DNA of 64,000 nucleotides from a virus (lineage: Duplodnaviria > Heunggongvirae > Uroviricota > Caudoviricetes): the IMG/VR virus record IMGVR_UViG_2687453508_000006, one strand, 5' to 3'. The notes beneath the pieces were generated by a model. The model did no database searches and had not been told where the DNA came from. It saw only the letters and a list, made by a program, of their open reading frames with translations. Shown here one piece after another: positions 6,146 to 41,253 of the stretch. A program made the translations under genes and the position numbers. Each line of letters opens with the position of its first letter. The first letter of the stretch is position 1.

Positions 6146-6844
6146 TTACTGCGAAAGTTTATTAATGGAAAGGAAACCGCCAAAATTAGCCACCATGCTG
6201 CGCATCTCACACCCGCGCATGCACTTGCTGCATCTGTCCTTACGGATATCCGTGGTGGGGTTGTCGAACTCATCCGCCACTGCCCCGCCCGTGTAACCAC
6301 ACTCATCAGAGCGGTAGGTCCACATACAGGTATTCGCCAGCATAATGCGACCGGGAAACAGCGCTCCGTCCGTCTCCGTCGGTGTTGCCAGCACAAACGA
6401 GGCTGTCATGGCCGTCAGCTCTGACATCTGCTCCACCACCCAGCGGTCTCTCAGCTCCTGCTCCGGGTCCGCTTCCGGATTGCCCGCCACAAAATTCACC
6501 GCATCCAGAAAACGGGCATACACCCGGCGGCGGACCACCGTGGCACCCACCAGGCTCTGCAAATCCTCCGCCATCCCGGTGACAAGACCGAACAGATTGG
6601 ACACCGTCAGCGACGGGCGGGCACTGCTGCCCTTCCCGTTCATCTCAAAGCCACTGCCGTCAATCGGGTATACCTGATATTGCCGCCCCTGCCAGGTGAC
6701 CGCCTCCCCTTTTTCATTCAGCTCATTACAGAAAAAATACCGCTCACCGCCCTGCACCGTCAGGTCGATTTCCCAGAGCACCACCCGCGGTGACTGCTCT
6801 GACTTAACCGACTCGTTCAGGCTTTCTTCATGAATATTCTGCAT
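6146..6844 (-). CDS. L: minor tail protein L
   Basis: Start MQNIHEESLNE... overlapping M stop (ATGA); C-terminus ...NFGGFLSINKLSQ as in lambda gpL. Confidence 0.85.
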   Translation of the reverse strand: MQNIHEESLNESVKSEQSPRVVLWEIDLTVQGGERYFFCNELNEKGEAVTWQGRQYQVYPIDGSGFEMNGKGSSARPSLTVSNLFGLVTGMAEDLQSLVGATVVRRRVYARFLDAVNFVAGNPEADPEQELRDRWVVEQMSELTAMTASFVLATPTETDGALFPGRIMLANTCMWTYRSDECGYTGGAVADEFDNPTTDIRKDRCSKCMRGCEMRSMVANFGGFLSINKLSQ

Positions 6845-7185
6845 CAGTTCACCACCTGCTCTATCGTGCAACTGAAATCACTGTACCGGGCATTATCCGT
6901 GACACTCCACTCACGGCACACAACCCTCACCGTCCGGTTATGTTTCGGCGGTCGCCACAAAAAGGCACGGTAACCACCATGCCAGGATAAAAATTCATCC
7001 AGCCAGCGCCGGGTTGACTCATCCGTCACCCGGAACACCGCCTGAAACGTCTTCAGTTGAGGATTCAGCCCTGTGGGGCGGCGCTGTTCATAACCGTCAC
7101 CAAACCGCACCCTCACCACCGACGGCTTCTCACTCACCTGCATCCCTTCACGCGGGACCAGATGCAGCGTTTTTATCTCAGCCAC
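6844..7185 (-). CDS. M: minor tail protein M
   Basis: 113 aa, lambda gpM-like, between H and L. Confidence 0.85.
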   Translation of the reverse strand: MAEIKTLHLVPREGMQVSEKPSVVRVRFGDGYEQRRPTGLNPQLKTFQAVFRVTDESTRRWLDEFLSWHGGYRAFLWRPPKHNRTVRVVCREWSVTDNARYSDFSCTIEQVVN

Positions 7186-10100
7186 TCAGCATTCCTCCGT
7201 CACGTCGCATGGACAGCATCACCGCCTGCACCCGCTGGTCAATCAGCTGCACAAGACTGCCTGCCGCCTCCGGCCCTATCTGTCCGTTAGCCCCGTCATT
7301 CTGAATGGCAATGTGGTAGACCGGGGAATACACCAGACCAGCACTGCCGTTCATACTGCCCACGGCGCGTACGCCCAGCGAGCCATCCGCCGCCCGGGTC
7401 AGGGGCATAATAGCTTCAGGTCCGGCTTCCCCCATCAGCCCGGCCCCTTTTGCAAACGCAAAGTACGTGGGCGTGTCCACAATGCTGTTGCTGTACGCGC
7501 TCAGGTTTGCCGAGGTATACACGCCGCCTTTTGCATTGGCCACCGCTCCGCCCAGCCAGTCACCAATGCTGCCGAGAAATCCTCCCGCACCGGACATACC
7601 GTTTGCCGCCGTCTTAATTCCGTTGACAATCGCGGCATTCATAAGAACTTTTGATATTTCCTGCAGTACGGATGAGGCCCAGCTGCGCCATTCCACTTTA
7701 TTTCCGTTCAGCATCTCCGTGATGTTATTCACCATCCCTGAGATACCCTCCGTCGCCAGCTGTGCTGCCTGTGAGGCGTAATCGGACGCATTATCCACCC
7801 AGTTACTGAATCCCTCCTGCAGCCCTTTCTGCCAGTCCGCACGCTGCACATCCGATTCGGCATAAAAGACTGCCTGGTCCTTAAGGCGTTCGCTCAGATA
7901 CTGCGCGTTCTGTGCCAGCGCCTGTCTGTAAAAATCCTCACTGATATCCCCGGTCTGATACTGAGACTGAAGGTCCGCATCCTTCTGGCGGAAGCTGTCG
8001 CGGATCTGCTGCAACTCCCGCATGCGTTCCCTGGCTCGTTCCCCCTGCCCGTACCCCAGCAGTTCAGATTCATTTGATGCACGCGCAGCCACATTATCAT
8101 TCTTCAGGGTCTCTTCCCGGTACCGCAACTGCTCCCGGATTTTTTGCTGGTCAATCAGGGCCGCATTGCGCAGCAGTTCCTGCTTCTGTATCTCCGACAG
8201 GGTTTTCAGTTCACCCAGCGCTGTCTGGTACTTCAGCTTCGCCAGCTCCGTGTTCTGACCGGCCAGTGCCAGTTGCTCTTTCTGCTGCTTCAGCAGCCGG
8301 GAAAAACTGTCTTCCGCTTTTTCCGTCTCTGATTTTCCACCCCGGGATTTGGGTTTATTCACCTCGTTATTGCGCCAGGCTTCCAGGGCATTACTGATAT
8401 AACGTTGTCTCGCCTCCTGATACGGATCCCCCACAAAACCGAGGTCATCCGCCGCATACCCCAGTCGGACGCGCTCTTTTTCTTCCCCTTTCAGTCTGGA
8501 CAGGGCCAGCTCACGCTCTGTTTTTGTCAGGGCACTCTGCTGTTTATCATCCAGAGTGGCCTGTGGCAGCCGTAACGGCACATTCACCAGTCCCTGCCGC
8601 TGCTGAAGCAGTTCATTCCCCAGCCCCAGCAGACGGTTGAATTCCGTATACTGACCGTTCATAACCAGCATGGACTGGTACACCTTATTCTGCTCTGCCG
8701 CCTGCTGACGAATTAACGCCACACGACGGTCTTCCAGCCCGGCAAGCACATCCTGAATGGACTGCGCTTTTTCCTGCATCTGTGCCAGACGGGACTGCTC
8801 AACGGCAAGCTGCTCTGTTGCCTGAGCAAGCCCTTCCGTTACGGTCTTCACCGATGTCAGATGGTTTATCATGAATCCGTCACCGGTCGTCCAGCCCGGG
8901 TTCGCCAGAACATACTGATATCCTGCGATTTTTTCCTGCAGGGATTTCACCCGACTGGCCTGTTCATCAATCAGCCGGTTCTGCTCTGTCAGCGCCGCCC
9001 GTGTTCGTCCTTCATTATCTGAGGCTTCAGGCAAAGACATTGACGGCGTTTTATGCGCGATTTCATCTATCGTCAGTGCATACTGGCGCGCAGACTCCCT
9101 GGCCTGCTCCTGATTCTGGTACAGCGTGTACCATGCTGCAGCCCCCAGCATCACCAGTCCGGGTACGCCACCAACCAGCCCCAGCGCACCGCTCATCAGA
9201 CGTGAGCCCACCGCCGTTGTACTGTTCAGCGCATTCTGGGCGGCGCTTCTGGCAGCAATATTTCTGTTCAGGCGTTCCTGTGTGGCCGCCAGACGGGCCT
9301 CTGCAGCAATCTGCATCTCCGTCCCGCGGGCTGCCGCCACGGCCTGCTGAGCACGGTACACGGCTGCCCTTGCCCGCGCCGTGGCAATCTGCGTTCCCCT
9401 GAACTGTGCTTCCGCCAGTGCAACTTCATTACGTGCAGCCGTCACAAGTCCTGCCGTGGCAGACATCGCTCCGGAGGCCATATTGCCAAAGTACCGGGCA
9501 ACCCCGACGGCAACCAGCGCGCCCACGGCTGTTGCCACATTATCAATCTGTCCGGCAACACCGTTCAGCATGCCGGAGAGCGTTTTTGTCACCCCGCTGG
9601 CCTCATTCGCACCGCCCACCCAGGCCATAAAGGCGTTTTCCACCTTTGTGATACTACTGGAAACCGTTTCCGGCATGGCCGCATATTCATCACGTAATAT
9701 CCCCAGCTGGCTGATTAACGCGGGGACCACTTTATCCGCTGTCAGTTTTCCGTCATCCGCCATTGCCTTCAGATCTTTACGGGCCACGCCCATACCCGCA
9801 GCCAGTGCACGTACGATCCGGTCACCACTTTCATTGACCGAATTAAACTCCTCACCACGCAATACACCCTGCGCCAGCGCCTGACTGAACTGGGTGATCA
9901 CCGAGCCCGCCTCTGCCGTACTGGCACCGGAGATTTTCAGCCCTGTCGAAATGGCCTCCGTCACCTTCAGCACATCATCAGCACTGTAACCATATTCACG
10001 CATCGAGGCAGCCGAACGGGCAAACAGGGCCGCATTATCCGAAAATGCGGTGCCTGTCCGCTGGCTGATATCCATCAGCACTTTCTGTGATGACGCAAAT

Positions 10101-10420
10101 TCATCGGATGACTGTGATGCCTGTTTCAGACGGGCATTCACGGAGCTCCATTCATCCGCCAGCGAAATCAGGTGTCCGGTGGCAAAGGCACCGGCAAACG
10201 CACCGGTCATTCCGACAGCCGAAGCGCGGATTTCCGTCAACTGGCTGTGCAGCTCAGCCAGAGCCCGGCGCTGCTCCCTGGCTGCCGCAGCAGCCTGACG
10301 TCCGCCATTCTGCAGGGTCCGGTAATATTCACTGCCCATACGGGACGCCCGCTGGATCTCCGACTGGAATGACTGTGAATTTGCCGAAATTTTGATAATC
10401 AGTTCACGTAACGTCGCCAT
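7178..10420 (-). CDS. H: tail tape measure protein H
   Basis: 1080-aa intact ORF, coiled-coil-rich, C-terminal NDGANGQIGPEAA motif as in lambda gpH; RBS GGAGAAAGG. Confidence 0.9.
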   Translation of the reverse strand: MATLRELIIKISANSQSFQSEIQRASRMGSEYYRTLQNGGRQAAAAAREQRRALAELHSQLTEIRASAVGMTGAFAGAFATGHLISLADEWSSVNARLKQASQSSDEFASSQKVLMDISQRTGTAFSDNAALFARSAASMREYGYSADDVLKVTEAISTGLKISGASTAEAGSVITQFSQALAQGVLRGEEFNSVNESGDRIVRALAAGMGVARKDLKAMADDGKLTADKVVPALISQLGILRDEYAAMPETVSSSITKVENAFMAWVGGANEASGVTKTLSGMLNGVAGQIDNVATAVGALVAVGVARYFGNMASGAMSATAGLVTAARNEVALAEAQFRGTQIATARARAAVYRAQQAVAAARGTEMQIAAEARLAATQERLNRNIAARSAAQNALNSTTAVGSRLMSGALGLVGGVPGLVMLGAAAWYTLYQNQEQARESARQYALTIDEIAHKTPSMSLPEASDNEGRTRAALTEQNRLIDEQASRVKSLQEKIAGYQYVLANPGWTTGDGFMINHLTSVKTVTEGLAQATEQLAVEQSRLAQMQEKAQSIQDVLAGLEDRRVALIRQQAAEQNKVYQSMLVMNGQYTEFNRLLGLGNELLQQRQGLVNVPLRLPQATLDDKQQSALTKTERELALSRLKGEEKERVRLGYAADDLGFVGDPYQEARQRYISNALEAWRNNEVNKPKSRGGKSETEKAEDSFSRLLKQQKEQLALAGQNTELAKLKYQTALGELKTLSEIQKQELLRNAALIDQQKIREQLRYREETLKNDNVAARASNESELLGYGQGERARERMRELQQIRDSFRQKDADLQSQYQTGDISEDFYRQALAQNAQYLSERLKDQAVFYAESDVQRADWQKGLQEGFSNWVDNASDYASQAAQLATEGISGMVNNITEMLNGNKVEWRSWASSVLQEISKVLMNAAIVNGIKTAANGMSGAGGFLGSIGDWLGGAVANAKGGVYTSANLSAYSNSIVDTPTYFAFAKGAGLMGEAGPEAIMPLTRAADGSLGVRAVGSMNGSAGLVYSPVYHIAIQNDGANGQIGPEAAGSLVQLIDQRVQAVMLSMRRDGGMLSG

Positions 10421-10467
10421 TCACCTTTCTCCGGGCGTAAAAAAACCGCCTCAGCGGTTCTCATCAT

Positions 10468-11147
10468 TCATGACTGTGCTGCAAGGCTCAGCGCGTCTTC
10501 CAGCGCCGCAAACGGATCCACCTCCGGCTTATCCTCATCCTCGCCCCAGCAGAGCATGGCGTCCTTCAGTGCAACATTCATCCCCTGTGCCCCGAAAACC
10601 GCTTTCACGATCTGTGCATTACGGATATCCCCGCGCTCATCACCCAGCGGGGATATCCTGTCGAACTCCATCCACATCATCGCCTCGCTCGCACTCAGGC
10701 TGTGGCGCAGTTCGGATAAGGTGCGCCCCAGACGGAGCGCAAGTCGCATCAGAAAGCGAATTTCCGGGCGGGCTACTTTTTTCTGGCCGACTCTGCATCA
10801 GCGATCAGTTCCAGTGCCTGACGCAGCAACCGGGCATGTACCGGACCATAGACGGCCAGCACCTGCTCACGGTCGTCCGGAGTGAACACCCGCTGCAGGT
10901 CCGTATCACACAGGACATCGCAGAACAGCGTCACATCCGCTTCCAGGTTACGGCGGGTTTTCGCCACCACCGACAGGGTATCGTCATCCTCTCCATCACC
11001 ATTGAGCACTTCCTGCCACAGATACCAGGCCTCTGCCGAAGGCTCCCGCAGCACCACGCTGACATTACCCCATTCCGGCACCTTCACCGTTTTATGACGA
11101 AACCCTGACAGTCTGGCCAGCGCCAGCGTTTTCAGATCCTTTTTCAT
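10468..11147 (-). CDS. tail assembly chaperone G-T fusion made by programmed -1 ribosomal frameshift
   Basis: Heptamer A AAA AAG (minus strand, plus 10777-10783) at end of G; -1 frame reads KKVARPEIRFLMRLALR... into the T ORF 10468-10749. Confidence 0.6.
10773..11147 (-). CDS. G: tail assembly chaperone G
   Basis: Start MKKDLKTLALARLSGF at 11147; ends ...ESARKK with slippery A_AAA_AAG immediately before the stop. Confidence 0.75.
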   Translation of the reverse strand: MKKDLKTLALARLSGFRHKTVKVPEWGNVSVVLREPSAEAWYLWQEVLNGDGEDDDTLSVVAKTRRNLEADVTLFCDVLCDTDLQRVFTPDDREQVLAVYGPVHARLLRQALELIADAESARKK

Positions 11148-11161
11148 GATGACCCATCCCC

Positions 11162-11878
11162 TTATCCGGCGGCTGCGCTCACTGTCACGGTGCATTCAAC
11201 AGACGTCACACTCTGTGCTTTCTCTGCCGAATCGGTCACCACACAGGTATATTTCCCCGCATCAGCGGACTGCGCACCTGGCTTACTGAAGGTGTCTGTC
11301 GTCTGCCCGTCAACCGGCTGACCATCCTTCTTCCAGGCGTATTTATACGGCGGCGTTCCCCCGTTGGCACTGACTGACATTGTCAGCAGCGCACCGGTAT
11401 TCACGGTAAGTGTCTTATCCAGATTTTTCACAAACGCCAGCGGTACCACAAAGGACACCGGTTTGCCTTTCAGACGCAGTGAGAACGTTGCAGCCACCAC
11501 GCCGTTGGTACCGGATGACCAGGTGTGCTGGCGCACTTCCGCCAGGAACTTAAAGCCCTTACCGGACGGAAACAGCACCTTAAACGCATACAACGCGTCA
11601 TTGTCATAGGCATCACGCAGGGCGTTCTGGGCCTGATTCAGATAAAAATTGCCCGACATGGAAATCTCAGACGACGCCCCCAGACCATTGATGTTCTCCT
11701 GCTCTGTGGAGCAGAGCGTGGTCACATCAATATCCTGTTTCTGACCGGCGGTGAACTGGACTTCCTTGATGGTGCAGTCCAGGCGCAGATATTCCGCCTT
11801 ATCCATAGTTTCAGCAGTCGCCGGGGCAGATGAAATCATCACCTGCGTCAGCTGTGAGCGTTCATACAAAGCAGACAT
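11162..11878 (-). CDS. V: major tail protein V with C-terminal Ig-like domain
   Basis: Start MSALYERSQLTQ at 11878 with AGGAGG RBS; C-terminal Big_2-like segment ...GKYTCVVTDSAEKAQSVTSVECTVTV. Confidence 0.8.
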   Translation of the reverse strand: MSALYERSQLTQVMISSAPATAETMDKAEYLRLDCTIKEVQFTAGQKQDIDVTTLCSTEQENINGLGASSEISMSGNFYLNQAQNALRDAYDNDALYAFKVLFPSGKGFKFLAEVRQHTWSSGTNGVVAATFSLRLKGKPVSFVVPLAFVKNLDKTLTVNTGALLTMSVSANGGTPPYKYAWKKDGQPVDGQTTDTFSKPGAQSADAGKYTCVVTDSAEKAQSVTSVECTVTVSAAAG

Positions 11879-11946
11879 TCTGCCTCCTGATAATAAAAAA
11901 ACCCGCACGCGGCGGGGTATGGGTTTTGTAGAAAAAAAAGAAAAAG

Positions 11947-12291
11947 TCACACCGTGACCTGAAACTCCAGGGTTGCACGGTAACAGCGGTTTTCCGGAAT
12001 ATAGTCCTGCATTTCACTGACGGATCCCGGGGCCAGCAGCATTATGGCTTCACGGGCGTCCTGACGTATCTGACGCGCCTGCGTCACAGTCCCGGCATAA
12101 ACGTCTATCTGCACCGACACTGAGGACTCCGCCTGCCCGCCCATCACGTCCGCAGACACCGATGAAATCAGGCTGAAAACCACCCACGGAAGCGCCACCG
12201 ACGGCCTGCCATCCAGCAGGGGGACCACATACGGGTACACCTGCCCGCCGGCAAGATGCGCCAGATAAGGATACAAATCCGCCTCCGTCAT
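11947..12291 (-). CDS. putative tail terminator/completion protein (lambda U functional analogue)
   Basis: 114 aa, position between gp10-like protein and V. Confidence 0.45.
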   Translation of the reverse strand: MTEADLYPYLAHLAGGQVYPYVVPLLDGRPSVALPWVVFSLISSVSADVMGGQAESSVSVQIDVYAGTVTQARQIRQDAREAIMLLAPGSVSEMQDYIPENRCYRATLEFQVTV

Positions 12292-12734
12292 CGTCTCAGT
12301 ACCTCATCAATGGCCCGGTTCATCCGCGCAATCGCCACCTGAGCTGCCTGTTCACTGCGCACATCAAACGCCGGGCGCACAAACGGGTGCGGTGGCATAT
12401 TCACGGTCCCCATTTCCACAAACCGCCAGTAGAAAGCATTGCGCGGGTTATCCGCCTTCATGGTGTTATCGCTGTTACCGGTGTCCGGATTAACACCACG
12501 GATATGGACACCGGATTCCATCCCGCCATCGCGGGAGCGCCGGGAAAGGACCACCACATTGCGGCGCAGTTTTCCCCTGCGTACCGGTGCCCGTGACACC
12601 ACTTCTTCTTTCAGCACATTCGCACCCGCACGGGTTGCCTCACGCAGCACCCGGTTATTTTCCGCACCACTCAGAAGCTGCAAATCGCGGCTGATGTCCT
12701 CCAGCCCCGAAAAATCCAGCAGGGTTTCGATCAT
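12288..12734 (-). CDS. HK97 gp10-family tail-component protein
   Basis: 148 aa, MIETLLDFSGLEDISRDLQLL...; position in connector module. Confidence 0.65.
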   Translation of the reverse strand: MIETLLDFSGLEDISRDLQLLSGAENNRVLREATRAGANVLKEEVVSRAPVRRGKLRRNVVVLSRRSRDGGMESGVHIRGVNPDTGNSDNTMKADNPRNAFYWRFVEMGTVNMPPHPFVRPAFDVRSEQAAQVAIARMNRAIDEVLRR

Positions 12735-13081
12735 TTTTCCCCTCCCAGCCGACAGAGAATTTCCAGACGCCCGCCGGTCACATCCGGCACGGGCAGCCCG
12801 ACAACGTTCAGGATCCGGTCACGCCATGGACCACTCAGCACATGAAGTCGTGACGCTGCCGTGATTTCCCGGCCGGACTGACCGCGCACCCAGATGCGGA
12901 TTTCCGCCTGCGCCATTTCCGCACCGGACTGCATCCGCTCCCGGCTGCTCCTGCCACGGATATCCGCATGAATTTTCCCGCATGACACCCATTCTTCCGT
13001 CATTTCTCCGGCAGCATTACGGGTTAACACCGGGTTCAGAACACTTATCATCTGTGTCAGACGACCTGCAGATATTGCCAT
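12731..13081 (-). CDS. phage head-tail adaptor (head closure) protein
   Basis: 116 aa; connector-module position; overlapping start/stop with neighbours. Confidence 0.6.
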   Translation of the reverse strand: MAISAGRLTQMISVLNPVLTRNAAGEMTEEWVSCGKIHADIRGRSSRERMQSGAEMAQAEIRIWVRGQSGREITAASRLHVLSGPWRDRILNVVGLPVPDVTGGRLEILCRLGGEK

Positions 13082-13090
13082 TCCCCCTCC

Positions 13091-13417
13091 TCATAACACC
13101 GTCGGACAACGCAAATCGTAAATCAGCACGGACACAGAAAACGGCAGTTCCCCCTGCACGAGGTCTTCCCGCTCAGCAAGATCCGGATTCCGGTACAGCA
13201 TCCCGGTCAGTCGCATGGCAGCCCCCTTCATCCGGGTTAATGCCTCGCCCGGGATCAGCTCACCGTCCTCACGAATCACCTTATCCCGGCTGCCCTGAAT
13301 GTAGGCCAGCAGCACGGCGGTAGCCTGACGAACCTTGTCCATCAGCATGTCATCATCCGCGTCATGGTCGACACGCAGATGTGCCTTGATCTCTTCCAGT
13401 GTCAGTAATGCCGTCAT
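13091..13417 (-). CDS. gp6-like head-tail connector protein
   Basis: 108 aa, MTALLTLEEIKAHLRVDHDADDDMLMDKVRQATAV... Confidence 0.6.
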   Translation of the reverse strand: MTALLTLEEIKAHLRVDHDADDDMLMDKVRQATAVLLAYIQGSRDKVIREDGELIPGEALTRMKGAAMRLTGMLYRNPDLAEREDLVQGELPFSVSVLIYDLRCPTVL

Positions 13418-15998: not shown

Positions 15999-16209
15999 TC
16001 GCCATGCTCCGCATCACGTTTCTTTTTCTGACCTGCCGGACGTCGCGCTGTGATGTACTCCGCCTTCCCCAGGCGAACCAGCACCTCCGCACACGGCTGT
16101 GCCACATCACGGATATCCCCGGCCCGGGCATCATGCGTGCCCTGCAGATATCGGATCTTTGCCATAACCTGTTACGGGAGGCGCACGCCTCCCGTCCTCC
16201 TTATCAGAC

Positions 16210-18147: not shown

Positions 18148-18210
18148 ATCAGCCTCCTGAAAATAAAAAAACCGCCGCAGCGGTTCATGATGGTTACAGT
18201 GTGAACAGGG

Positions 18211-22187: not shown

Positions 22188-22194
22188 CTCTCTT

Positions 22195-28309: not shown

Positions 28310-28381
28310 AAGCCCATCCCCCGCACCATTTTACTGTCACGCATCAACAGAGTAATGCTCTGCGGCTGTTCTCTGAATCCG

Positions 28382-29023: not shown

Positions 29024-29091
29024 TCTGCCTCCTGATAATAAAAAAACCCGCACGCGGCGGGGTATGGGTTTTGTAGAAAAAAAAGAAAAAG

Positions 29092-29878: not shown

Positions 29879-30226
29879 TTTTCCCCTCCCAGCCGACAGA
29901 GAATTTCCAGACGCCCGCCGGTCACATCCGGCACGGGCAGCCCGACAACGTTCAGGATCCGGTCACGCCATGGACCACTCAGCACATGAAGTCGTGACGC
30001 TGCCGTGATTTCCCGGCCGGACTGACCGCGCACCCAGATGCGGATTTCCGCCTGCGCCATTTCCGCACCGGACTGCATCCGCTCCCGGCTGCTCCTGCCA
30101 CGGATATCCGCATGAATTTTCCCGCATGACACCCATTCTTCCGTCATTTCTCCCGGCAGCATTACGGGTTAACACCGGGTTCAGAACACTTATCATCTGT
30201 GTCAGACGACCTGCAGATATTGCCAT
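29875..30226 (-). pseudogene. head-tail adaptor gene, frameshifted (copy 2)
   Basis: Split into ORFs 29963-30226 and 29875-30162. Confidence 0.5.
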
Positions 30227-30235
30227 TCCCCCTCC

Positions 30236-30562
30236 TCATAACACCGTCGGACAACGCAAATCGTAAATCAGCACGGACACAGAAAACGGCAGTTCCCCCT
30301 GCACGAGGTCTTCCCGCTCAGCAAGATCCGGATTCCGGTACAGCATCCCGGTCAGTCGCATGGCAGCCCCCTTCATCCGGGTTAATGCCTCGCCCGGGAT
30401 CAGCTCACCGTCCTCACGAATCACCTTATCCCGGCTGCCCTGAATGTAGGCCAGCAGCACGGCGGTAGCCTGACGAACCTTGTCCATCAGCATGTCATCA
30501 TCCGCGTCATGGTCGACACGCAGATGTGCCTTGATCTCTTCCAGTGTCAGTAATGCCGTCAT
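30236..30562 (-). CDS. gp6-like head-tail connector protein (copy 2)
   Basis: Identical to 13091-13417. Confidence 0.6.
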   Translation of the reverse strand: MTALLTLEEIKAHLRVDHDADDDMLMDKVRQATAVLLAYIQGSRDKVIREDGELIPGEALTRMKGAAMRLTGMLYRNPDLAEREDLVQGELPFSVSVLIYDLRCPTVL

Positions 30563-33143: not shown

Positions 33144-33354
33144 TCGCCATGCTCCGCATCACGTTTCTTTTTCTGACCTGCCGGACGTCGCGCTGTGATG
33201 TACTCCGCCTTCCCCAGGCGAACCAGCACCTCCGCACACGGCTGTGCCACATCACGGATATCCCCGGCCCGGGCATCATGCGTGCCCTGCAGATATCGGA
33301 TCTTTGCCATAACCTGTTACGGGAGGCGCACGCCTCCCGTCCTCCTTATCAGAC

Positions 33355-35292
33355 TCAGCCGCCGGACGCACTGCCGTAGTTCACTCCGGTGATCACCGCC
33401 ACCGCCGCAGTACGGCGACGACGCCAGTTGATCCAGCGCTCCGCACGGATGGCCACGCTGCCTGTCTGGAACATGGAAACCAGCTCCACCGGGGACGGCG
33501 TGGTACTGTCGCCGCCCGGCTCAGACTGCATTTCCAGTGATGCCTCGCGGGACATATCCACTGCCACGCCGCCGTCATCCGCCAGATAAATATCCGGGGC
33601 ATTCACCAGCACCAGCTGGTCACCCACGTACTGGGAGACAATCACCGGCAGCCCCTGGAAGGAGCCACCCAGCAGGGTCATGTCCGGGTATTCCTTCTGA
33701 CCCAGCGCATTTTTACGCATGGACAGTGCCAGGGCATTGGTGCTGGACATCAGCCAGACCGCACCGGTGGGCTGCAGGTTTGCTGCCACAAACTGTCCAA
33801 ACGCAGCCTCGGCATCCGCATCCGGGTTACCGGTTGATGCCGTGCCCTTCACATCATGGGTGATGGACGCCGGGGAGACATCTGCCACTGCGGCTTTTTT
33901 CGGGTCCACAAAGTCTGTATCCAGACGCGCCACCACCGCTTCCGCCAGCGCATTACGGACCAGTGCATCAGCAGCCGGACTGGAAAAACGGATCAATTCT
34001 TCCGTCAGTACCGCAATGGCCGACACCTTCGCATGACTGAAGGTGATGGATTCAAAATCAAACTTCGTCAGGGGTTTTGCCTTACCCTCACCCACCCAGC
34101 CGGCAGCACCGCCGGACACCTGGGCGTGCACACGGATATTGAATGGCACCTGACGAAGTGCAGGGATCCCGCCCTGACCAAATCGCCCGATAATGGTCTG
34201 CGGACGCAGGTAATCAATAAAGTCCTGTGCGTATTCCTGATATTCAGACAGGCTGCCTGCCCACTGCGGATCCGTGGTGGTCCCCGCGCCCACTGCCGAT
34301 TTCAGGACATGATGCAGACGACTGTCATCCGGATACTGACGACGGGCCACTTCCAGGGCTTCAGATCGGACGCCTTTAGCCGCAGCCAGCGATTTGGCAA
34401 AGCGGGCGAAGCCAATCCCCTTATCCAGTTTCTGCTCCACACGGATCACCGGCGCAGAAGCCACCGCGGCCACATTCCCGTTACCGGCCTGTTTCACCGG
34501 CTGCGCCGTGGCGGCCTTACCGGCTTCCAGTTCACGCAGGCGCTTCAGGTGCGCATCCACCTGACGGATTTCCGCTGCGGTGTTGTCGTAATGCTCTTCC
34601 TCCTCCACATCCAGCGTGCGCCCTTCCTCTGCGGCTTTGGTCATGACCTCCTCAAGGGAGGCTGCCAGCGCTGCACGCTTGTTTTCAAAACTTTTAATCT
34701 GTTCGCCAATATTCATTATGGTCTTTTCCTTATGAAAAACGGTTGTTGACTGTGCCGCAGCGCCGGCAGAAGATGCGATTTTCACCACCGGTTTCCGGTT
34801 GCCGGACGCGGCAGAAAACGGGCGGTCGTAAGATTTAATGGTCCGGATGGTGCATTCCGCATTCGCGGGCACGGTGACGGCAGACACCTCCATCAGTTCC
34901 CAGCGCAGAAAATGCAGTCCGCCTCCGTCCAGAAAGGTGTATTCATGGGGACGGAAGCCCACGGACAGCCCCCTGACCAGCCCGGTCTTAATGGCCGCCC
35001 AGACCTCATCCAGCCGGGCAGCCAGTTGCGACGGCATATCCGGTACGGGCTTCACCAGTGTTGCCGTGATTTCCAGCCCTTCGCTGACCCGGCGCACCGT
35101 ACACTGCCCCACCGGGCGGGAATGGTCATGCTGCCAGAGAAACGGGATCGCACTGCCAAACTCCGCGCCCTCCGGCTCCAGGATGTCACCATCCCGATCC
35201 GGAGAAGGCGTTGACGCAATCCCGGTGATCACCCGTTCATCCTCACTGAAGGATTTCACCGTCAGCAGGGAACAGGCCCGTTTAAGAGTCAC
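33355..35292 (-). CDS. prohead protease - major capsid fusion (copy 2)
   Basis: Identical to 16210-18147. Confidence 0.75.
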   Translation of the reverse strand: MTLKRACSLLTVKSFSEDERVITGIASTPSPDRDGDILEPEGAEFGSAIPFLWQHDHSRPVGQCTVRRVSEGLEITATLVKPVPDMPSQLAARLDEVWAAIKTGLVRGLSVGFRPHEYTFLDGGGLHFLRWELMEVSAVTVPANAECTIRTIKSYDRPFSAASGNRKPVVKIASSAGAAAQSTTVFHKEKTIMNIGEQIKSFENKRAALAASLEEVMTKAAEEGRTLDVEEEEHYDNTAAEIRQVDAHLKRLRELEAGKAATAQPVKQAGNGNVAAVASAPVIRVEQKLDKGIGFARFAKSLAAAKGVRSEALEVARRQYPDDSRLHHVLKSAVGAGTTTDPQWAGSLSEYQEYAQDFIDYLRPQTIIGRFGQGGIPALRQVPFNIRVHAQVSGGAAGWVGEGKAKPLTKFDFESITFSHAKVSAIAVLTEELIRFSSPAADALVRNALAEAVVARLDTDFVDPKKAAVADVSPASITHDVKGTASTGNPDADAEAAFGQFVAANLQPTGAVWLMSSTNALALSMRKNALGQKEYPDMTLLGGSFQGLPVIVSQYVGDQLVLVNAPDIYLADDGGVAVDMSREASLEMQSEPGGDSTTPSPVELVSMFQTGSVAIRAERWINWRRRRTAAVAVITGVNYGSASGG

Positions 35293-35355
35293 ATCAGCCT
35301 CCTGAAAATAAAAAAACCGCCGCAGCGGTTCATGATGGTTACAGTGTGAACAGGG

Positions 35356-37017
35356 TTATATGAAAAAAACCGCATATTCTTTCTTTTTCGGTTCCGGGTT
35401 AAGGGACATCAGGGAGACCGCATTGAACAGCGCCATCAGCGGGTCAATTTTTCCCCGTCCACTGGCCTGTTTGGTGATAAGAATGGCGTTACCTTTAGGC
35501 TCCACCCGGGCATTGCCGACACACCAGGCCATCAGGGGCTGGTCACCATGCACCAGCACCCCTTCAGCCAGTTTGCGCTCGGTGGTTTTAATGGCCCCGC
35601 CCAGTTTCCAGCCCTGGCTTATCCCCACCACAATTCCGTCGGGGATCCCGGCTTCCGCCAGTGAATCCAGAATCTGCCCCACCCCTGACGGGTCAATACC
35701 GATATGGTCCAGTAACTCAGCCTCATGAATGCGACGCACATATTCCGCCACTTCCGCCGTGTCATCCCCGACACGCCGGACAATGGTCATATCTCCACAG
35801 GCAACAAGATCCTGAAACCGGGACGCCTCGCTCTTCCGTCGGACCACCGCGGTTTCATGCGCCCAGGCATGGCCCCAGCCCAGCCATTCGCGGGTTTCCC
35901 TGTCACGGCCAATCACGTACATTCCCAGCAGATCATCCAGGCCCCCGCCGTCAATCCCCACCGTCACCACATCAGCGCGCTGCAGGATATCGTCCAGGCT
36001 GACGCGCCTGCCCTGCTGCTCCCAGAAATCCGCACCCGCCCAGCGGTCAGAACGCAGGGCAAGACCAATTTCCACATTGGCATGTTTTGACATGAAGCCA
36101 CGAAATGCTTCCTCACCAGCCTCCCGGGCTTTACGGTACTCCCGGTACAGAAAAGCCTCATCCACCGAATAACCGAGATTCGGGTTAACCATGGCGAGGT
36201 TTTCCATCAGCAGGTGAGCCCCGCTTTCCACCATTTCAGGAGGATGCTCAAAAATCACCGGCAGAAAGTGCGGATCATGAATTTTGCCGTCACGGACATC
36301 CCGGGCGTACTGCAGTTTCTGTCTGAACACCCCGGCTGGCGGCTCATTCGACTGGGTGGTCGTATACACCACAAACCCTTCCGGGCGGGAGGCAAGGCCG
36401 CCTATGGCTTCACGTAACATGTCCTCCGCTTTGTACTGCTTGCCAAATAACCACAGTTCATCAATCAGCGTCCCCACGGACTTGATACCGGATACCGTAT
36501 TCGGATCGGCAGCCACCACCTTCAGGGTGGTGTCCGTCACCCTGTGGGTGATGGTCCGGATATGTGTCTGCACCTGACAGAGGTCATCCAGATCATCGTC
36601 CCGTCGTACCATATCCCTGGCAGGGTTGAAGGCGTTAGCCGCCACCTCCACGGTCGGGGCCAGAATGGTGTAGCCCGCCGCCTGCCGCCAGTTCAGTAAC
36701 AGCGCCGTCATCATGATCCCGGCAGCCAGCGTGGACTTGCTGTTTTTCTTGGGGATAAGGATAAAAACTTCCTTGATATGGCGTACACCGGTCTGCGCAT
36801 CGTAGGAGCCAAACAGGGCCGCCACCAGGTCAAACACCCACTGTGCGCAGGACTCCCCGAACGTCGGGCTGCCCGGTGCATCCACAATCCGCAGTTGTTT
36901 AAAAATCGCCAGGGCATGTGCGGCCTGCTCCGGATAAATCGGAGCCGGAATAATCGACAGCCCCTTTTTCAGGCGCTCTGCCCAGTCCGGGCAGGCCGTG
37001 CTCCACACAGGTATCAT
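35356..37017 (-). CDS. terminase large subunit (copy 2)
   Basis: Identical to 18211-19872. Confidence 0.85.
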   Translation of the reverse strand: MIPVWSTACPDWAERLKKGLSIIPAPIYPEQAAHALAIFKQLRIVDAPGSPTFGESCAQWVFDLVAALFGSYDAQTGVRHIKEVFILIPKKNSKSTLAAGIMMTALLLNWRQAAGYTILAPTVEVAANAFNPARDMVRRDDDLDDLCQVQTHIRTITHRVTDTTLKVVAADPNTVSGIKSVGTLIDELWLFGKQYKAEDMLREAIGGLASRPEGFVVYTTTQSNEPPAGVFRQKLQYARDVRDGKIHDPHFLPVIFEHPPEMVESGAHLLMENLAMVNPNLGYSVDEAFLYREYRKAREAGEEAFRGFMSKHANVEIGLALRSDRWAGADFWEQQGRRVSLDDILQRADVVTVGIDGGGLDDLLGMYVIGRDRETREWLGWGHAWAHETAVVRRKSEASRFQDLVACGDMTIVRRVGDDTAEVAEYVRRIHEAELLDHIGIDPSGVGQILDSLAEAGIPDGIVVGISQGWKLGGAIKTTERKLAEGVLVHGDQPLMAWCVGNARVEPKGNAILITKQASGRGKIDPLMALFNAVSLMSLNPEPKKKEYAVFFI

Positions 37018-37577
37018 CCGTTGCCCTCATTATCATTATTCACCACCAGGCGGGGTGGTGGTGGCACCGCAAAACGGTTAGCCGCTTTTTTCGCCGCGTC
37101 ACCTTTTGCCGATTTTTTACCGGCATCCCCTTTTTTGTGGTGCGTGAACTGCGCCAGCTTATAAGCCGCATCCAGCGCCAGCCTGGGGTCGGTATTAATG
37201 TTCTCCACCAGAAGACGCCCCATCGCTTTCACCGGATCGGGAAGACCGTCCTCCATATACTCAATACCAGGAGATATCACCACGGGCGGTGGCATCTCCG
37301 GATTTGTTTCGTCCGGCTGTGGTATTGCAGCCGCCTCACGGCGACGGGGTTTATCCTCCGGCTCTGATTTTTTCTGCCGATAAACAGGAACCTCATCCAC
37401 CTCCACCGTCTCGCACTGTTTACGGGCTATAAACGCAAGCACCTCCGGATCTTTTGCCAGCTGCGAGCCTTTAACCCTGGCTGTCTTCGCCGAATAACCG
37501 GCGGCAAGGGCTGACGCTGTTTTGTTTTTCCCGGACATGAGCGCCAGCGCAAATTTTCGTTTTTGCGTTGTCAGCAC
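37014..37577 (-). CDS. terminase small subunit (copy 2)
   Basis: Identical to 19869-20432. Confidence 0.7.
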   Translation of the reverse strand: MLTTQKRKFALALMSGKNKTASALAAGYSAKTARVKGSQLAKDPEVLAFIARKQCETVEVDEVPVYRQKKSEPEDKPRRREAAAIPQPDETNPEMPPPVVISPGIEYMEDGLPDPVKAMGRLLVENINTDPRLALDAAYKLAQFTHHKKGDAGKKSAKGDAAKKAANRFAVPPPPRLVVNNDNEGNG

Positions 37578-37648
37578 AGCCTCCTCCCGGGTCCAGAACG
37601 CACTCAGCCGGGTATGGTTCAGCCCATTTTTCCCGGCGTCTCATGCCG

Positions 37649-37774
37649 CAAATGTTAACTGCTGCCTGGTTAACATTTGCTGAAAAAGCCTGTTAACATT
37701 TTTTCCGCACAACAAACTGAATAATAAAGATAAAAACCGCAAAAATGCCCGGGCAGCCAGTTAACATGTTAACT
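37649..37774. other. cos-like GTTAACAT palindrome cluster (copy 2)
   Basis: Same motifs as 20504-20629. Confidence 0.4.
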
Positions 37775-37866
37775 GCCCTGAAACGGGAATTTTTTCTCTG
37801 CGTGAGAGGGGGCGCGGTGTCCAGGGCGATCGTTTTTTTTCGCCGGATGATCCCCCCCGGGTCTGG

Positions 37867-38232
37867 TCACAGGCCAGTGATTCCGTCGGCCCTGAGCGTG
37901 CCATCAGGAAGCTCAGGCAACGTCGGATCAGGCATACCACTCGCCGCTTCACTCGCTGACTTCTGGCGATGGCATTCAGTACAGAGGGTCCAGAGGTTCG
38001 TCTCCTCATTACCACCACCGAACTGAAGTGCAATGCGGTGATCGAGTTCACTGTCACAAAGGTCAACCACGCGTCTACAGAGACAACAGTGTCCGGCATC
38101 CCTCCGCCAGATACGACGTTTGAGGGAAACCCGGGCACTGCCACTGACACGACGCTGTTCCCCCCTCAGGACATTTATCCGCCGGGTGTTCAGAGTTTTG
38201 ATTCTGCCCGGTAACGTACGAAGCACAGCCAT
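37867..38232 (-). CDS. HNH endonuclease (copy 2)
   Basis: Identical to 20721-21086. Confidence 0.8.
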   Translation of the reverse strand: MAVLRTLPGRIKTLNTRRINVLRGEQRRVSGSARVSLKRRIWRRDAGHCCLCRRVVDLCDSELDHRIALQFGGGNEETNLWTLCTECHRQKSASEAASGMPDPTLPELPDGTLRADGITGL

Positions 38233-38273
38233 GTAAAATCCTCGCCATATAGCTTGTCACCAGAGGAAAGAAA

Positions 38274-38501
38274 ATGTCATCGAAAAACCGGCCCCGCAGA
38301 ACAACAACCCGCAACATCCGATTTCCAAACCAGATGATTGAACAAATTAACATCGCTCTTGACCAGAAAGGTTCAGAAAATTTTTCTGCGTGGGTCATTG
38401 AATCTTGCCGCCGGGAGCTGGCAGCAGACATAAAATATGCCCGTCAGTTGACTATAAAAAAGAATGATACACAGTATGCTCTGCGATGGCTGTTCATATA
38501 A
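38274..38501 (+). CDS. ylcI: YlcI/YnfO-family protein (copy 2)
   Basis: Identical to 21128-21355. Confidence 0.65.
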   Translation: MSSKNRPRRTTTRNIRFPNQMIEQINIALDQKGSENFSAWVIESCRRELAADIKYARQLTIKKNDTQYALRWLFI

Positions 38502-38863
38502 CTATTTCTTTATATTGCTGAATTTATAAAAACTCACAGACATTAGCTGTATTAATTCCGAATTGAAATAATCAGCCATATAGAATAAAAATAAAGCATA
38601 ACAATAATAATCTTCTACCCAATCAGTACATTACTGCTGTGACTCCAACACGGCAGTTTTTTTATTGAACAGATTCCAGTTTCTTCCACCATCGCACCGG
38701 ACGGGCGACCATGAGGGGAGAACGCCGCGCTCCGTTTACGCGGTAAACCCCGGTGTGTATCGTTTTTGATTATCCCCGCACACTCTCGCAGAGGAGTCTC
38801 CCTGTCGGGCTGCGGTCTCTGTTAATGCAGGAATACGGCGACGATACGGCGCATCAGCAAAAC

Positions 38864-39331
38864 TTAGTTCAGGCACTGAGTGCGGATATAGTCCTGTGCC
38901 CCTTCCAGCTGCTTCTGCATTGTCATCAACCGTTCTCTGAGGATGAAATAATCCCGTTCAGCGGTGTCTGCCAGTCGGGGGCCGGTTGCATTATCCACGC
39001 CGGAGGTGCCGGTGGCTTCACGCACGGTACCGGAGCAGGTGGCGTTGATCCGCAGGCGCTTACGACCAGCGGCAACATCAGCACGCAGAGTTTCATTTTC
39101 AGCTCTCGCATCGGCTAACTCCCTCGAGTATTTTGCATCGAGCGCAGCAACATCACGCTGGCGCACCTGCATGTCAGTAATGGTGGCATTCGCCTGTTCC
39201 AGCTCTCTGGCTTTTTTATCGCGCTGCGCTTTGTAGGTGAGCGCGTTGTCACGGTAATGGTTTGTTGCCAGCCACAGCGCACCATAGCCAACCGCCAGGA
39301 CAATAATCACCACACACAGAACACGGTTCAT
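38864..39331 (-). CDS. Rz: i-spanin Rz (intact copy)
   Basis: 155 aa, N-terminal TM helix [22 protein letters not shown] then coiled-coil periplasmic domain. Confidence 0.8.
38926..39111 (-). CDS. Rz1: o-spanin Rz1 embedded in Rz
   Basis: 61-aa lipoprotein ORF in +1 frame within Rz. Confidence 0.65.
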
Positions 39332-39484
39332 CTCTCTTTCACCCCACCAGTCCCGATAACGTCAGGACTCGCCAGGCGGTGGAAAAGAAAATGGCAACCA
39401 GCATGACTAAAAATGAAATGCCGACAAGTACACAGAGGCTCTTCACCAGCGTTATGAGTTTATCTGATATCATTAGCCACCCCA

Positions 39485-40054
39485 TCAATCCGCCTTTGTT
39501 ATTTTCCCTTTGCCTGTATCAGCCAGGACAAAATCAATCAGCATATTCGCTTCATTTACCAGCGTACGGATTTTTGATACATGCGCGGCTTTAACCTGTT
39601 TCCACTCATTCAGCCCGGTAGCAAACACACTGGCAATGTTTTTATCCCGTTTCATGTCAGCACAAGCCTGGTTGAGTTCTTCCATCACGCTCATTTTACG
39701 GGGATTAACGACAAAACCCTTCGTCCAGTACTCGTAAAGAACATCGTCGCACTCTTCCTGATACCGGATGACCTTATCGCGGATTTCGGGTTTTACTTTG
39801 TTGGGATTAATGGTTTGTAGCCAGCCGGCAAGTTTTCGAAGTGGCATGGACACCATATTGCGTTGTTTCCCATCCTCAGCAACCATAACGATTTCCGTTA
39901 TAGTTGACGCAAAACGCTGTCTTAACTTAGCCAACTGTGATTGCCAGGCCAGCCCCATCCCCGCAACGACAGGTTTCATGGGAACGTATGGTTCGCCATT
40001 ATGGTTAACTACATAAAGAGAGTTGCCGTGAAACGGCACGGCCATCATATTCAT
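39485..40054 (-). CDS. antirepressor-like protein (P22_AR N-domain-like), intact copy
   Basis: 189 aa MNMMAVPFHGNSLYVVNHNGEPYVPMKPVVAGMGLAW...; sits between R and Rz as in some Stx-type phages. Confidence 0.5.
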   Translation of the reverse strand: MNMMAVPFHGNSLYVVNHNGEPYVPMKPVVAGMGLAWQSQLAKLRQRFASTITEIVMVAEDGKQRNMVSMPLRKLAGWLQTINPNKVKPEIRDKVIRYQEECDDVLYEYWTKGFVVNPRKMSVMEELNQACADMKRDKNIASVFATGLNEWKQVKAAHVSKIRTLVNEANMLIDFVLADTGKGKITKAD

Positions 40055-40324
40055 CGGTTATTTCCTTTTAGTGATGAACCTTGTCTCACAGGAATCCAGC
40101 CCACAGAAAGGCACCGACAGCCAAACCGGTATCCTCAAGGGTCATCCTGAAAGGTTCTGTGTTGTGAGATGCGCGTGAGATGCGCAGAAATGACAAAGGC
40201 ATCATTACGGTGCCTGAGTGTTAAACAACTGCTTTGACTTTATTCACTTACATTTTGCCAATTTGCAGGATTTCGTGTTATCCGTCCATGTAAGCAAACC
40301 TCATTTTTCAGCAAAATATTCTGC

Positions 40325-40858
40325 TTATCTGTCGATTCCCCAGCACGCCAGCGCGCTCTCCTGGTCACGACGGGATACCTGACCGTAACAGTTATTTGAG
40401 CGAATACGGCAGTCCCTGCCACCGTCCTTAATCCACCAGCGAATCGCTTCGCAGGCACCTTTTCGATCTCCTGCATTAATCCGTCTGTAAAACGTCGACG
40501 GGAAACACTTACCGGGGCCAATGTTGTACGGACAGAATGACGCGATCCCCGCTTTCTGGGGTTCGGTCAGCGGCACTCTGATGTTTTTCTCCACCCATGC
40601 CAGCGCCTTATCACGCTCAATGGCGTTAACCCGGTCGCATTTTTCCTTCGACAGCTTCATGCCAGGAATAACAGGCTTACCATCCCCCCGGGTGGCTCCA
40701 CGGCAGATGGTCCAGATACCCGCACCATCACGGTATGCTGTGGTGTGGTTACCTTCCTTTTCATCCAGAAACTGGTCGAGGATTTCAGGCGCAGACGCCC
40801 CTGCACCAATCAGCGCCAGAACGGCAGCCGACAGGCCGTATCTGATTTTTGCGTTCAT
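40325..40858 (-). CDS. R: SAR endolysin (copy 2)
   Basis: Identical to 23173-23706. Confidence 0.85.
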   Translation of the reverse strand: MNAKIRYGLSAAVLALIGAGASAPEILDQFLDEKEGNHTTAYRDGAGIWTICRGATRGDGKPVIPGMKLSKEKCDRVNAIERDKALAWVEKNIRVPLTEPQKAGIASFCPYNIGPGKCFPSTFYRRINAGDRKGACEAIRWWIKDGGRDCRIRSNNCYGQVSRRDQESALACWGIDR

Positions 40859-40908
40859 GGATATTTATCAGGGTTTATCGATTTCAAATCCCTGGATATG
40901 TTAAGTCT

Positions 40909-41253
40909 TCAGGCCAGCGGTGGAGTCTTCAGAGAACCCGTAATTATTCCCGGTAGTTTTCCTCTGTAGGTTATCAACACATCCTGCGCCTCTAAAATTA
41001 CGGGACGCTTTTCCGGTAACGGACCATCCCCTTCACATAACCCGGCAGCAACATCCATGAAAAACTGCTTCGCCTGCTTTTTCGCCTCAGCTTCGTAAAA
41101 CTCCAGCGTGGCACCTTCAGTACGGTCAAGACTAATCGCCACATGTGGCAACAACAACGACGGATGCCCGCCAATTTCAAGTGCCACAGTAACAGCAATC
41201 TTATCCGGGTAATTATTTATCTCTTTAACAACCAGTTCGTATTTTTTCTTCAT
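40909..41253 (-). CDS. hypothetical soluble protein inserted between holin S and endolysin R
   Basis: 114-aa ORF MKKKYELVVKEINNYPDKIAVTVALEIGG...; no TM segment; right duplication junction (40914-40921) lies in its last codons. Confidence 0.45.
   Translation of the reverse strand: MKKKYELVVKEINNYPDKIAVTVALEIGGHPSLLLPHVAISLDRTEGATLEFYEAEAKKQAKQFFMDVAAGLCEGDGPLPEKRPVILEAQDVLITYRGKLPGIITGSLKTPPLA

Follow-up and report, generated by a model that had tools for sequence, protein, structure and literature searches.

A 17.2-kb direct repeat in a lambdoid prophage of E. coli O157:H7, probably an artefact of assembly

The stretch of 64,000 nucleotides analysed in this study, to which we refer as the window, represents a lambdoid prophage of E. 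coli O157:H7 whose left end is of the Sakai Sp12 type and whose right end is of the Sp10 type. Its late region is found twice in direct orientation, and the second of these copies most likely does not exist in the real chromosome. Judging from the sequence, an assembler has probably passed twice through an unresolved repeat, in a process seeded by a chimeric or rare molecule. An initial annotation of the same DNA had described the repeat as a microhomology-mediated duplication and had named an assembly artefact as the scenario that would contradict this view, which has now become the more likely reading.

The repeat and its junction

The two copies of the unit of about 17.2 kb are arranged head to tail (copy A, 6440-23769; copy B, 23762-40921). 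As the initial annotation had claimed, they are direct and collinear, with 6440-8801 aligning to 23762-26121 at 98.2% identity and 8884-23769 to 26045-40921 at 99.0%. The GC-rich 8-mer CCAGCGGT is indeed located at all three boundaries (6440, 23762 and 40914), and the described head-to-tail join is evident from the correspondence of the sequence left of 23762 with that left of 40914, and of the sequence right of 23769 with that right of 6447. The junction retains one copy of the 8-mer, which is present at both parental sites. In a blunt join, a microhomology of at least 8 bp would occur by chance with a probability of about 1-2e-4; it is thus statistically real and implies that the join was guided by homology. 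This homology is restricted to the 8 bp, with unrelated sequences on either side, which distinguishes the junction from a breakpoint of homologous recombination. Between the copies, the R-upstream spacer of copy A directly abuts L of copy B, without early genes or att.

The gene content bears out the reported doubling of the packaging genes, since each copy contains an intact TerS and an intact TerL, and the chimeric truncated L ORF that had been noted at 23732-24193 is present. Its product L' would comprise 144 aa when starting at the native ATG at 24166 and 153 aa from a TTG at 24193, with neither form finding a match among 15 billion proteins. Two conceivable sources of the junction were rejected. 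The natural truncation of L in Sp9 has its breakpoint about 50 nt upstream and is joined to a different sequence, and a concatemer or cos-related origin is disfavoured by the gene order, according to which a unit extending from R to the middle of L without the early region would not correspond to any normal intermediate of replication or packaging.

Table 1. Features of the window, with coordinates and strand.
Feature	Position	Strand	Content
Unique left flank	1-6439	-	Lom, split J, I, K, C-terminal part of L; Sakai Sp12-type tail end
Lom; split J; I; K	331-930; about 998-4685; 4814-5395; 5392-6135	-	In left flank
Copy A, repeated unit	6440-23769	-	L (from its interior) through R-upstream spacer
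Copy A, tail and head genes		-	L, M, tape measure H (7178-10420), T, G, V, head-tail connectors, portal region, capsid (16210-18147)
Copy A, packaging genes		-	TerL (18211-19872), TerS (19869-20432)
Copy A, lysis side		-	HNH, Rz, antirepressor, endolysin R (23173-23706), R-upstream spacer
Clean part of copy A	6440-20686		Adjoins unique left flank; 0 private differences
A-side error arm at junction	20687-23067		8 private events
Junction 8-mer CCAGCGGT	23762-23769		R-upstream spacer joined to interior of L
Chimeric truncated L' ORF	23732-24166	-	L N-terminus plus 11 new residues
Copy B, tail module	23770-28570	-	L', M', fragmented tape measure, T', truncated G', V'; blended, non-haplotypic
B-side error arm at junction	24750-30152		About 23 private events, mostly 1-2 bp deletions
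Clean part of copy B	30153-40921	-	Connector, portal region, capsid (33355-35292), TerL (35356-37017), TerS (37014-37577)
Copy B, lysis side		-	HNH, Rz (38864-39331), antirepressor (39485-40054), R (40325-40858)
Natural CCAGCGGT upstream of R	40914-40921		Followed by normal YdfR-holin sequence, as in all reference prophages
Unique right flank	40922-64000	-	Sakai Sp10-type; YdfR, holin, SASA esterase (41623-43476), TerB
tRNA-Arg and tRNA-Ile2	44652-44904		In right flank
Remainder of right flank		-	Antiterminator region, methyltransferases, replication and immunity genes, recE, recT, integrase

Relatives of the prophage

A close relative of the window resides in the genome of the E. coli O157:H7 strain Wll001 (NZ_CP064167.1, 372482-422256), where a prophage with an Sp12-type left and an Sp10-type right end, which originates from an Sp10-Sp12 inversion, shows the same gene order, and where the reciprocal hybrid prophage is found as well. 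Both flanks of the window are 100% identical to Wll001 and copy A aligns with 0 substitutions and 9 gaps, while a splice of positions 1-20600 and 37746-64000 matches over 36,776 nt with 0 mismatches and 1 gap. In contrast to the window, which contains both the duplicated unit and the junction, Wll001 carries the unit from L to R once and lacks the connection between the R-upstream sequence and L. The same ends are found in Sakai (NC_002695.2), where Sp12 and Sp10 match the left and right of the window at 100% and share its module and gene order. The left flank shows 100.000% identity over 6439 nt to Sp12, as it does to Wll001, and the right flank shows 100.000% identity to Sp10 over 19,087 nt and over 58609-64000. 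Sister copies of the same HK97-like late module, which is present four times per genome with a mutual identity of 94-100%, are contained in Sp6, Sp9 and the Stx1 prophage YYZ-2008. Unlike the window, the Sakai prophages and YYZ-2008 harbour the module once, in the order S-YdfR-R ... H-M-L-K-I-J, and without the junction. In Wll001, the module copies of Sp6 and Sp9 contain many calls annotated as 'frameshifted', thus identifying the module as one that is known to cause difficulties when genomes of this lineage are assembled. EDL933, considered as the source on account of its old CP-933O assembly, was rejected, as its Sp10 equivalent contains a different lysis module and reaches only 97.8%.

None of 5,426 complete E. 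coli genomes, in which every match ends at 23769, contains the junction, nor do any of 50,697 phage records, and it was likewise not retrieved when GTDB representatives, IMG/VR and JGI metagenomes were scanned for its exact sequence. The comparison with sibling genomes, which had been suggested as a check, has thus confined the duplicated geometry to the window, with Wll001 providing the exact single-copy form and the junction occurring in no other genome searched.

Sequence defects next to the junction

Between the two copies there are 25 indels and 118 substitutions, with 117 of the latter located in the first 5 kb, a divergence that had been missed in the initial annotation. From 28571 onward, a single substitution is left between the copies (22851/40001), which is found beside a 6-bp deletion private to copy A. 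Frameshifts have broken many genes in copy B, and some in copy A as well. All 31 differences that are private to the window sequence fall within 20687-30152, on both sides of the junction, a clustering that would have a probability of about 1e-24 if the events were uniformly distributed, and the remaining 54.5 kb of the window is 100% identical to reference genomes. Nearly all of these differences are indels of 1-2 bp, mostly deletions and mostly changes in the length of homopolymers; about 27 private indels were counted, and private substitutions away from indels are essentially nil. Paralogs from finished genomes, in comparison, contain private substitutions and 0-1 private gap columns. On the A-side, the events comprise 1-bp indels, the 6-bp deletion with its substitution and a 2-bp deletion, leaving Rz and the antirepressor broken, and in the private columns copy A is unlike copy B and all 7 paralogs. 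On the B-side, the tape measure is left in fragments, and G, V, gp17 and the head-closure gene are disrupted. The resulting Rz fragment of 77 aa is on record as WP_149017362.1, with no indexed contig, and the 8 other broken ORFs, besides the junction protein, have no record in the protein collection searched.

The respective other copy provides a matched control for either arm. Among the 5,426 complete genomes, the lysis segment of copy A finds a best match of 99.5%, whereas the same segment of copy B (37746-40452) is identical at 100.0% to many genomes. Conversely, the tail of copy A shows 100.000% identity to Wll001 and Sakai Sp12, whereas that of copy B reaches at most 98.1-98.3%, with 98.1% as its best match in the same set of genomes. 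The coverage by exact 200-mers of reference prophages amounts to 0.63 in the A-side arm, 0.43 in the tail module of copy B and 1.0 elsewhere, and the clean part of copy B is identical to Wll001 and Sakai Sp10. The errors are located 0.7-6.4 kb from the junction, and no error is seen in the parts that are most distant from any anchor. At the level of sequence, the arms touching the junction are the only part of the window that is of low quality.

A second pronounced feature concerns the tail module of copy B, which between 23762 and 28570 is a blend, composed site by site from the majority state of the four resident module copies. At 411 of the 488 columns that vary among the four copies of Wll001, copy B contains the allele shared by three of them, at sites with a two-to-two tie it mostly contains the Sp12-type allele, and 96 of its 118 substitutions are alleles of other resident prophages. 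To describe this tail as a mosaic of the four Wll001 copies requires at least 32 haplotype switches, at least two of which are located within 140 bp of the junction, and thus no single DNA molecule has such a sequence. If many reads had covered a real junction, the adjoining consensus would be a real haplotype, which is not the case here. Copy B was also considered as another resident prophage; Sp6, Sp9, Sp10, Sp12 and YYZ-2008 share the module, with a tail identity of at most 98.3%, and in a comparison covering every Sakai lambdoid prophage, Sp4, Sp11, Sp14 and Sp15 were found to contain other head-tail modules.

Origin of the repeat

The anatomy of the repeat, the position of the errors, the blended tail, the single-copy form in Wll001 and the lack of the junction elsewhere are shown by the sequences, and from these we infer how the DNA was sequenced and assembled and where the junction molecule came from. 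In the reading that we favour, the true locus would be a lambdoid prophage that contains the unit once and that, like the one of Wll001, combines a tail end of the Sp12 type with an early end of the Sp10 type. With four near-identical copies of the module, reads residing wholly inside it could not be placed by the assembler, and in one or a few molecules the spacer upstream of R may have become connected with the interior of L by way of the 8-bp microhomology. Such molecules could either be template-switch chimeras generated in vitro or rare recombinants formed in vivo, for example in spontaneously induced phage DNA, and the join would have led the assembly path through the unit twice. Genuine reads containing unique flanking sequence would polish the outer ends of both copies, and the inner arms, at the right end of copy A and the left end of copy B, would receive no uniquely placed reads, as a consequence of which they would keep draft-quality indels and the tail module would become a majority consensus of four paralogs.

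Over-expanded and unpolished repeats are both artefacts of assembly, and the window resembles them in a junction that is found in a single assembly (0 of 5,426 genomes) next to a close relative, Wll001, with a single copy, in indels that are confined to the arms next to the join, where unique reads cannot anchor, and in an orphan arm with the sequence of a paralog consensus. The junction itself is unusual in this respect, as typical false joins are either located inside long repeats or blunt, whereas here an 8-bp microhomology connects unrelated sequences. Since this exceeds the expectation for a blunt join, a physical junction molecule guided by homology has probably existed.

The same junction is exactly what a clonal duplication in vivo would yield, and a genuine 17.2-kb tandem duplication in the isolate, generated either by RecA-independent illegitimate recombination at 8 bp or by template switching during replication, is thus an explanation to be weighed, although we regard it as unlikely. 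The errors and the blended tail would in this case merely reflect a poor consensus inside a true repeat. Illegitimate recombination at short homologies, which is also a route to the formation of lambda-bio-type transducing phages, leads to the same head-to-tail join at an 8-mer common to both parental sites. Such an event would account for the exact geometry with its one 8-mer, for a microhomology far beyond chance and for the lone substitution separating the copies from 28571 on, and the bias towards Sp12-type alleles at tie sites would likewise be consistent with the presence of two Sp12-type copies in one genome. E. coli and Salmonella are well known to undergo spontaneous tandem duplication with short homologies at the junction, and since such duplications are strain-specific and unstable, the absence of a young duplication from other genomes is expected as well. 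However, of the features of a tandem duplication, the window displays the head-to-tail join and the short retained homology but not the near-identity of the copies, which upon illegitimate recombination are initially identical, unlike the junction-proximal 5 kb observed here. Moreover, reads spanning a genuine junction would be uniquely placeable, so that the best consensus would be expected within a few kb, where instead the errors are found. The mosaic already starts 100-140 bp from the junction, which is impossible for a single molecule, and the errors would require a separate explanation besides the duplication. The originally proposed microhomology-mediated duplication is consequently supported in its geometry and in a homology beyond chance, but is at odds with copies that are not identical as predicted for a clean recent event, with the non-natural haplotype in the tail of copy B and with a low quality found in the arms at the junction alone. 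It is thus doubtful that the repeat is real and clonal with a merely unpolished interior, in which case the strain would contain a defective prophage of about 72 kb with a doubled cos-terminase-head-tail-lysis block and two cos sites 17.2 kb apart.

Large rearrangements of O157:H7 genomes include inversions and duplications of 140-220 kb (Fitzgerald et al., 2021, PMC8743559). They concern the same organism and the same repeated family of prophages, and the hybrid in the window is itself the product of such an inversion. These events, however, proceed by homologous recombination across kilobases, in contrast to the 8 bp of homology inside one prophage described here, and the duplications (140 and 220 kb) are inverted and inserted in the Stx2c prophage, whereas the repeat of the window is direct. 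In the literature, we found no report of a microhomology duplication within a prophage of O157:H7.

Recombination between prophages is frequent in O157:H7 (PMC8743559, PMC2669165), and together with the prevalence of alleles from other resident prophages among the substitutions of copy B (96 of 118) this could point to a real duplication of older age, whose copy B was reshaped by gene conversion from Sp6-, Sp9- or Sp10-type prophages and decayed by frameshifts. We consider such a history very improbable, as it would require at least 32 ends of conversion tracts in 4.8 kb, as the about 27 private indels with hardly any substitutions are the reverse of a natural mutation spectrum, and as the presumed decay also affects the junction end of copy A and nothing else in 64 kb. 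Moreover, homologous recombination would quickly remove an unselected direct repeat of 17 kb in which 12 kb are devoid of substitutions. Finally, we give hardly any credence to a fusion of the late regions of two prophages once in tandem, by a deletion from upstream of the first R to the middle of the second L, although Sakai Sp12 shows collinearity with 1-23769 and Sakai Sp10 with 23762-64000, Sp9 contains an independent natural truncation of L, and the tandem of Sp11 and Sp12 and deletions between tandem prophages are known (PMC7430833, citing PMC3592242), since the Sp12-left/Sp10-right prophage of Wll001 is a single inversion-derived element accompanied by its reciprocal hybrid, with flanks 100% identical to those of the window, since an Sp12-type in tandem with an Sp10-type prophage is found in no genome, since integrase, att and early region are absent between the late regions, and since the tail of copy B is the haplotype of no real prophage.

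If the duplication was real, it would constitute a modest case of short-homology tandem duplication inside a prophage, and the gain for biology would be small for a process that is well known. If it is instead the artefact that we favour, the deposited O157:H7 sequence overstates one prophage by about 17 kb and includes a chimeric tail module as well as about 31 false frameshifts, by which prophage typing, pseudogene counts and surveys of structural variation would be misled. The restriction of errors and paralog-blended sequence to the arms touching a novel junction would then offer a usable signature for the recognition of false repeats.

Prophage identity and single-copy relative

The window is a lambdoid prophage of E. 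coli O157:H7, whose two flanks correspond to Sp12 and Sp10 of strain Sakai, prophages that are oppositely oriented and separated by about 250 kb. Both reciprocal hybrids, Sp12-left/Sp10-right (L003) and Sp10-left/Sp12-right (L014), are found in the O157:H7 strain Wll001 (NZ_CP064167.1), where they are the products of a ~285 kb Sp10-Sp12 inversion by a homologous-recombination crossover within the shared late module. Rearrangements of this type have been reported for O157:H7 (PMC8743559). Judged by its sequence, the Wll001 Sp12-left/Sp10-right prophage (372482-422256) represents the single-copy form of the window, since both window flanks are 100% identical to it and copy A carries no substitution. 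A splice of window positions 1-20600 and 37746-64000 (36,776 nt) aligns to this prophage with no mismatch and one gap and eliminates the junction together with all anomalies.

Several features of this prophage are listed in the table. The split of the tail-tip gene J is the same in the finished Sakai Sp12, which identifies it as a genuine pseudogene, unlike the frameshifts near the junction. The portal region, which may be a real two-gene arrangement or carry a programmed frameshift, is annotated by PGAP as a single 'frameshifted' gene in all genomes inspected, and as one or two genes in Sakai. The tRNA assigned as tRNA-Met (CAT) by ARAGORN is identical to a Sakai gene annotated as ileZ, a tRNA-Ile2 whose CAT anticodon, once modified with lysidine, specifies isoleucine; with the adjoining tRNA-Arg(TCT) it makes up the pair of rare-codon tRNAs usually seen in O157 lambdoid prophages.

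Coordinates of features in the window
Feature	Position	Strand	Remark
Left flank	1-6439		Lom, split J, I, K, end of L; 100.000% identical to Sakai Sp12
Right flank	40914-64000		YdfR, holin, esterase, tRNAs, early region, recET, integrase; 100.000% identical to Sakai Sp10
Copy A	6440-23769
Copy B	23762-40921
Junction	23762-23769		R-upstream spacer joined to L interior
CCAGCGGT	643, 6440, 11437, 18895; copies at 23762, 28582, 36040, 40914	+	repeat boundaries at 6440, 23762, 40914
Private events, copy A	20687-23067		8
Private events, copy B	24750-30152		~23
J	~998-4685	-	overlapping ORFs 1216-3420 and 3297-4685
Portal region	13414-15998 and 30559-33143	-	two ORFs, 454 aa and 407 aa, ATGA overlap
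Repeats in 407-aa ORF	13883-14412		3.3 tandem copies of a 162-nt (54-aa) unit
tRNA-Met (CAT)	44829-44904	-	ARAGORN assignment
tRNA-Arg(TCT)	44652-44728

Repeat geometry and junction

The two collinear direct copies described in the initial annotation were recovered by self-comparison, with 98.2% identity between 6440-8801 and 23762-26121 and 99.0% between 8884-23769 and 26045-40921, and CCAGCGGT is indeed located at all three boundaries. The proposed head-to-tail microhomology junction is borne out by the 40 nt to the left of 23762, which equal those to the left of 40914; the 40 nt to the right of 23769 equal those to the right of 6447, and the matching flanks on both sides thus define an exact head-to-tail geometry with 8 bp of microhomology. 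Microhomology of at least 8 bp is expected in about 1-2 x 10^-4 of blunt, homology-independent joins. The chimeric truncated L ORF at the junction is also present, as are the doubled packaging genes, with terminase genes intact in both copies. On the plus strand, CCAGCGGT is present eight times, or at five distinct sites if the duplication is discounted, compared with 2.1 expected from shuffles, for no obvious reason; it differs from the Chi sequence.

None of 5,426 complete E. coli genomes contains the junction, every match in them ending at 23769, and it is likewise missing from 50,697 phage records, GTDB species genomes, IMG/VR and JGI metagenome contigs; a search among 15 billion proteins found neither of the two forms of its protein. 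Only one of the ten broken ORFs unique to the window, the 77-aa Rz fragment of copy A, is on record (WP_149017362.1), which shows past RefSeq annotation of the source assembly.

Distribution of differences between the copies

The initial annotation had mentioned neither the 118 substitutions (117 within the first 5 kb) and 25 indels that separate the copies, nor the many broken genes near the junction, such as the tape measure gene, which encodes 1080 aa in copy A and is in four pieces in copy B. Differences private to the window, scored from an alignment of both copies with seven reference copies of the late module, are confined to one interval in each copy, and the other 54.5 kb are identical to reference genomes. 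Nearly all are 1-2 bp indels, mostly deletions and mostly changes in homopolymer length, whereas real paralogs in finished genomes carry private substitutions and 0-1 private gap columns. The lysis segment of copy A adjoining the junction (20600-23300) reaches at most 99.5% identity in the 5,426 complete genomes, while its matched control in copy B, adjoining the unique right flank (37746-40452), is 100.0% identical to many. Conversely, the tail module of copy A shows 100% identity to both Wll001 and Sakai Sp12, and that of copy B matches at best 98.1-98.3% anywhere. Coverage by exact 200-mers of real prophages reaches 1.0 in the tail and middle of copy A and the middle and end of copy B, compared with 0.43 in the tail of copy B and 0.63 at the end of copy A. 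Together, these observations locate the only poor sequence of the window in the two arms touching the junction. This distribution bears on the scenario of a real clonal duplication whose interior stayed unpolished, a scenario we consider rather unlikely, though the strongest of the alternatives: its junction-crossing reads would be uniquely placeable and the consensus therefore best within a few kb of the junction and worst in mid-copy, the opposite of what is seen.

Of the 118 substitutions, 96 correspond to alleles of sister prophages. When the tail of copy B was compared with all four Wll001 copies of the module at 488 variable columns, it carried the allele of three copies at 411, of two at 45, of one at 22 and of none at 10; 13 of the 22 single-copy alleles lie after 28596, where copy B becomes identical to copy A. 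A mismatch-free account would require at least 32 switches among the Wll001 copies in ~4.8 kb, at least two of them within 140 bp of the junction. The tail module of copy B is thus no natural haplotype and looks like a consensus drawn from the mixed reads of all paralogs rather than a single DNA molecule or the outcome of a duplication with a few later gene conversions. An old duplication with subsequent gene conversion and decay is very improbable given these switches and the mutation spectrum, and a fusion of two tandem prophages equally so in light of the single hybrid in Wll001 and the non-haplotypic tail.

Origin of the repeat structure

We consider the repeat structure to be probably an assembly artefact, and each testable sign of one was found. 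The duplication proposed initially exists in the sequence in the form described but most probably does not reflect the actual genome. In a single-copy genome whose assembly path ran through the unit twice, genuine flank-bearing reads would polish the left part of copy A and the right part of copy B, whereas the right end of copy A and the left end of copy B would be orphans that retain draft-type indels and hold a majority blend wherever paralogs differ. Such a double traversal matches every feature found except the microhomology, which it would not supply by itself; we thus infer a physical junction molecule that would have seeded the false path and was either a template-switch chimera formed in vitro or a rare recombinant formed in vivo, the latter perhaps derived from spontaneously induced phage DNA.

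Consensus indel errors seem to accumulate in the late module in other assemblies from the lineage too. In Wll001 Sp6 (L005) and Sp9 (L013), terminase, HNH, capsid, portal, Rz and antirepressor genes are annotated as 'frameshifted', and the late module of the two hybrid copies is mostly clean of such calls.

Short-homology illegitimate recombination resembles the junction in geometry, but the identical copies expected of it were not found. The Sp9 prophages of Sakai (L009, 28148-28773) and Wll001 (L013, 27942-28567) carry their own natural L truncation (438 nt) and have lost K and I; this is a different event, whose breakpoint lies ~50 nt upstream of the junction position and is joined to unrelated sequence, so that L has undergone at least one independent break in this region. 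Rearrangements that arise when O157 prophages recombine homologously with one another are well known, and one of them accounts for the hybrid character of the window prophage; the junction, with its homology of only 8 bp, is of another type.
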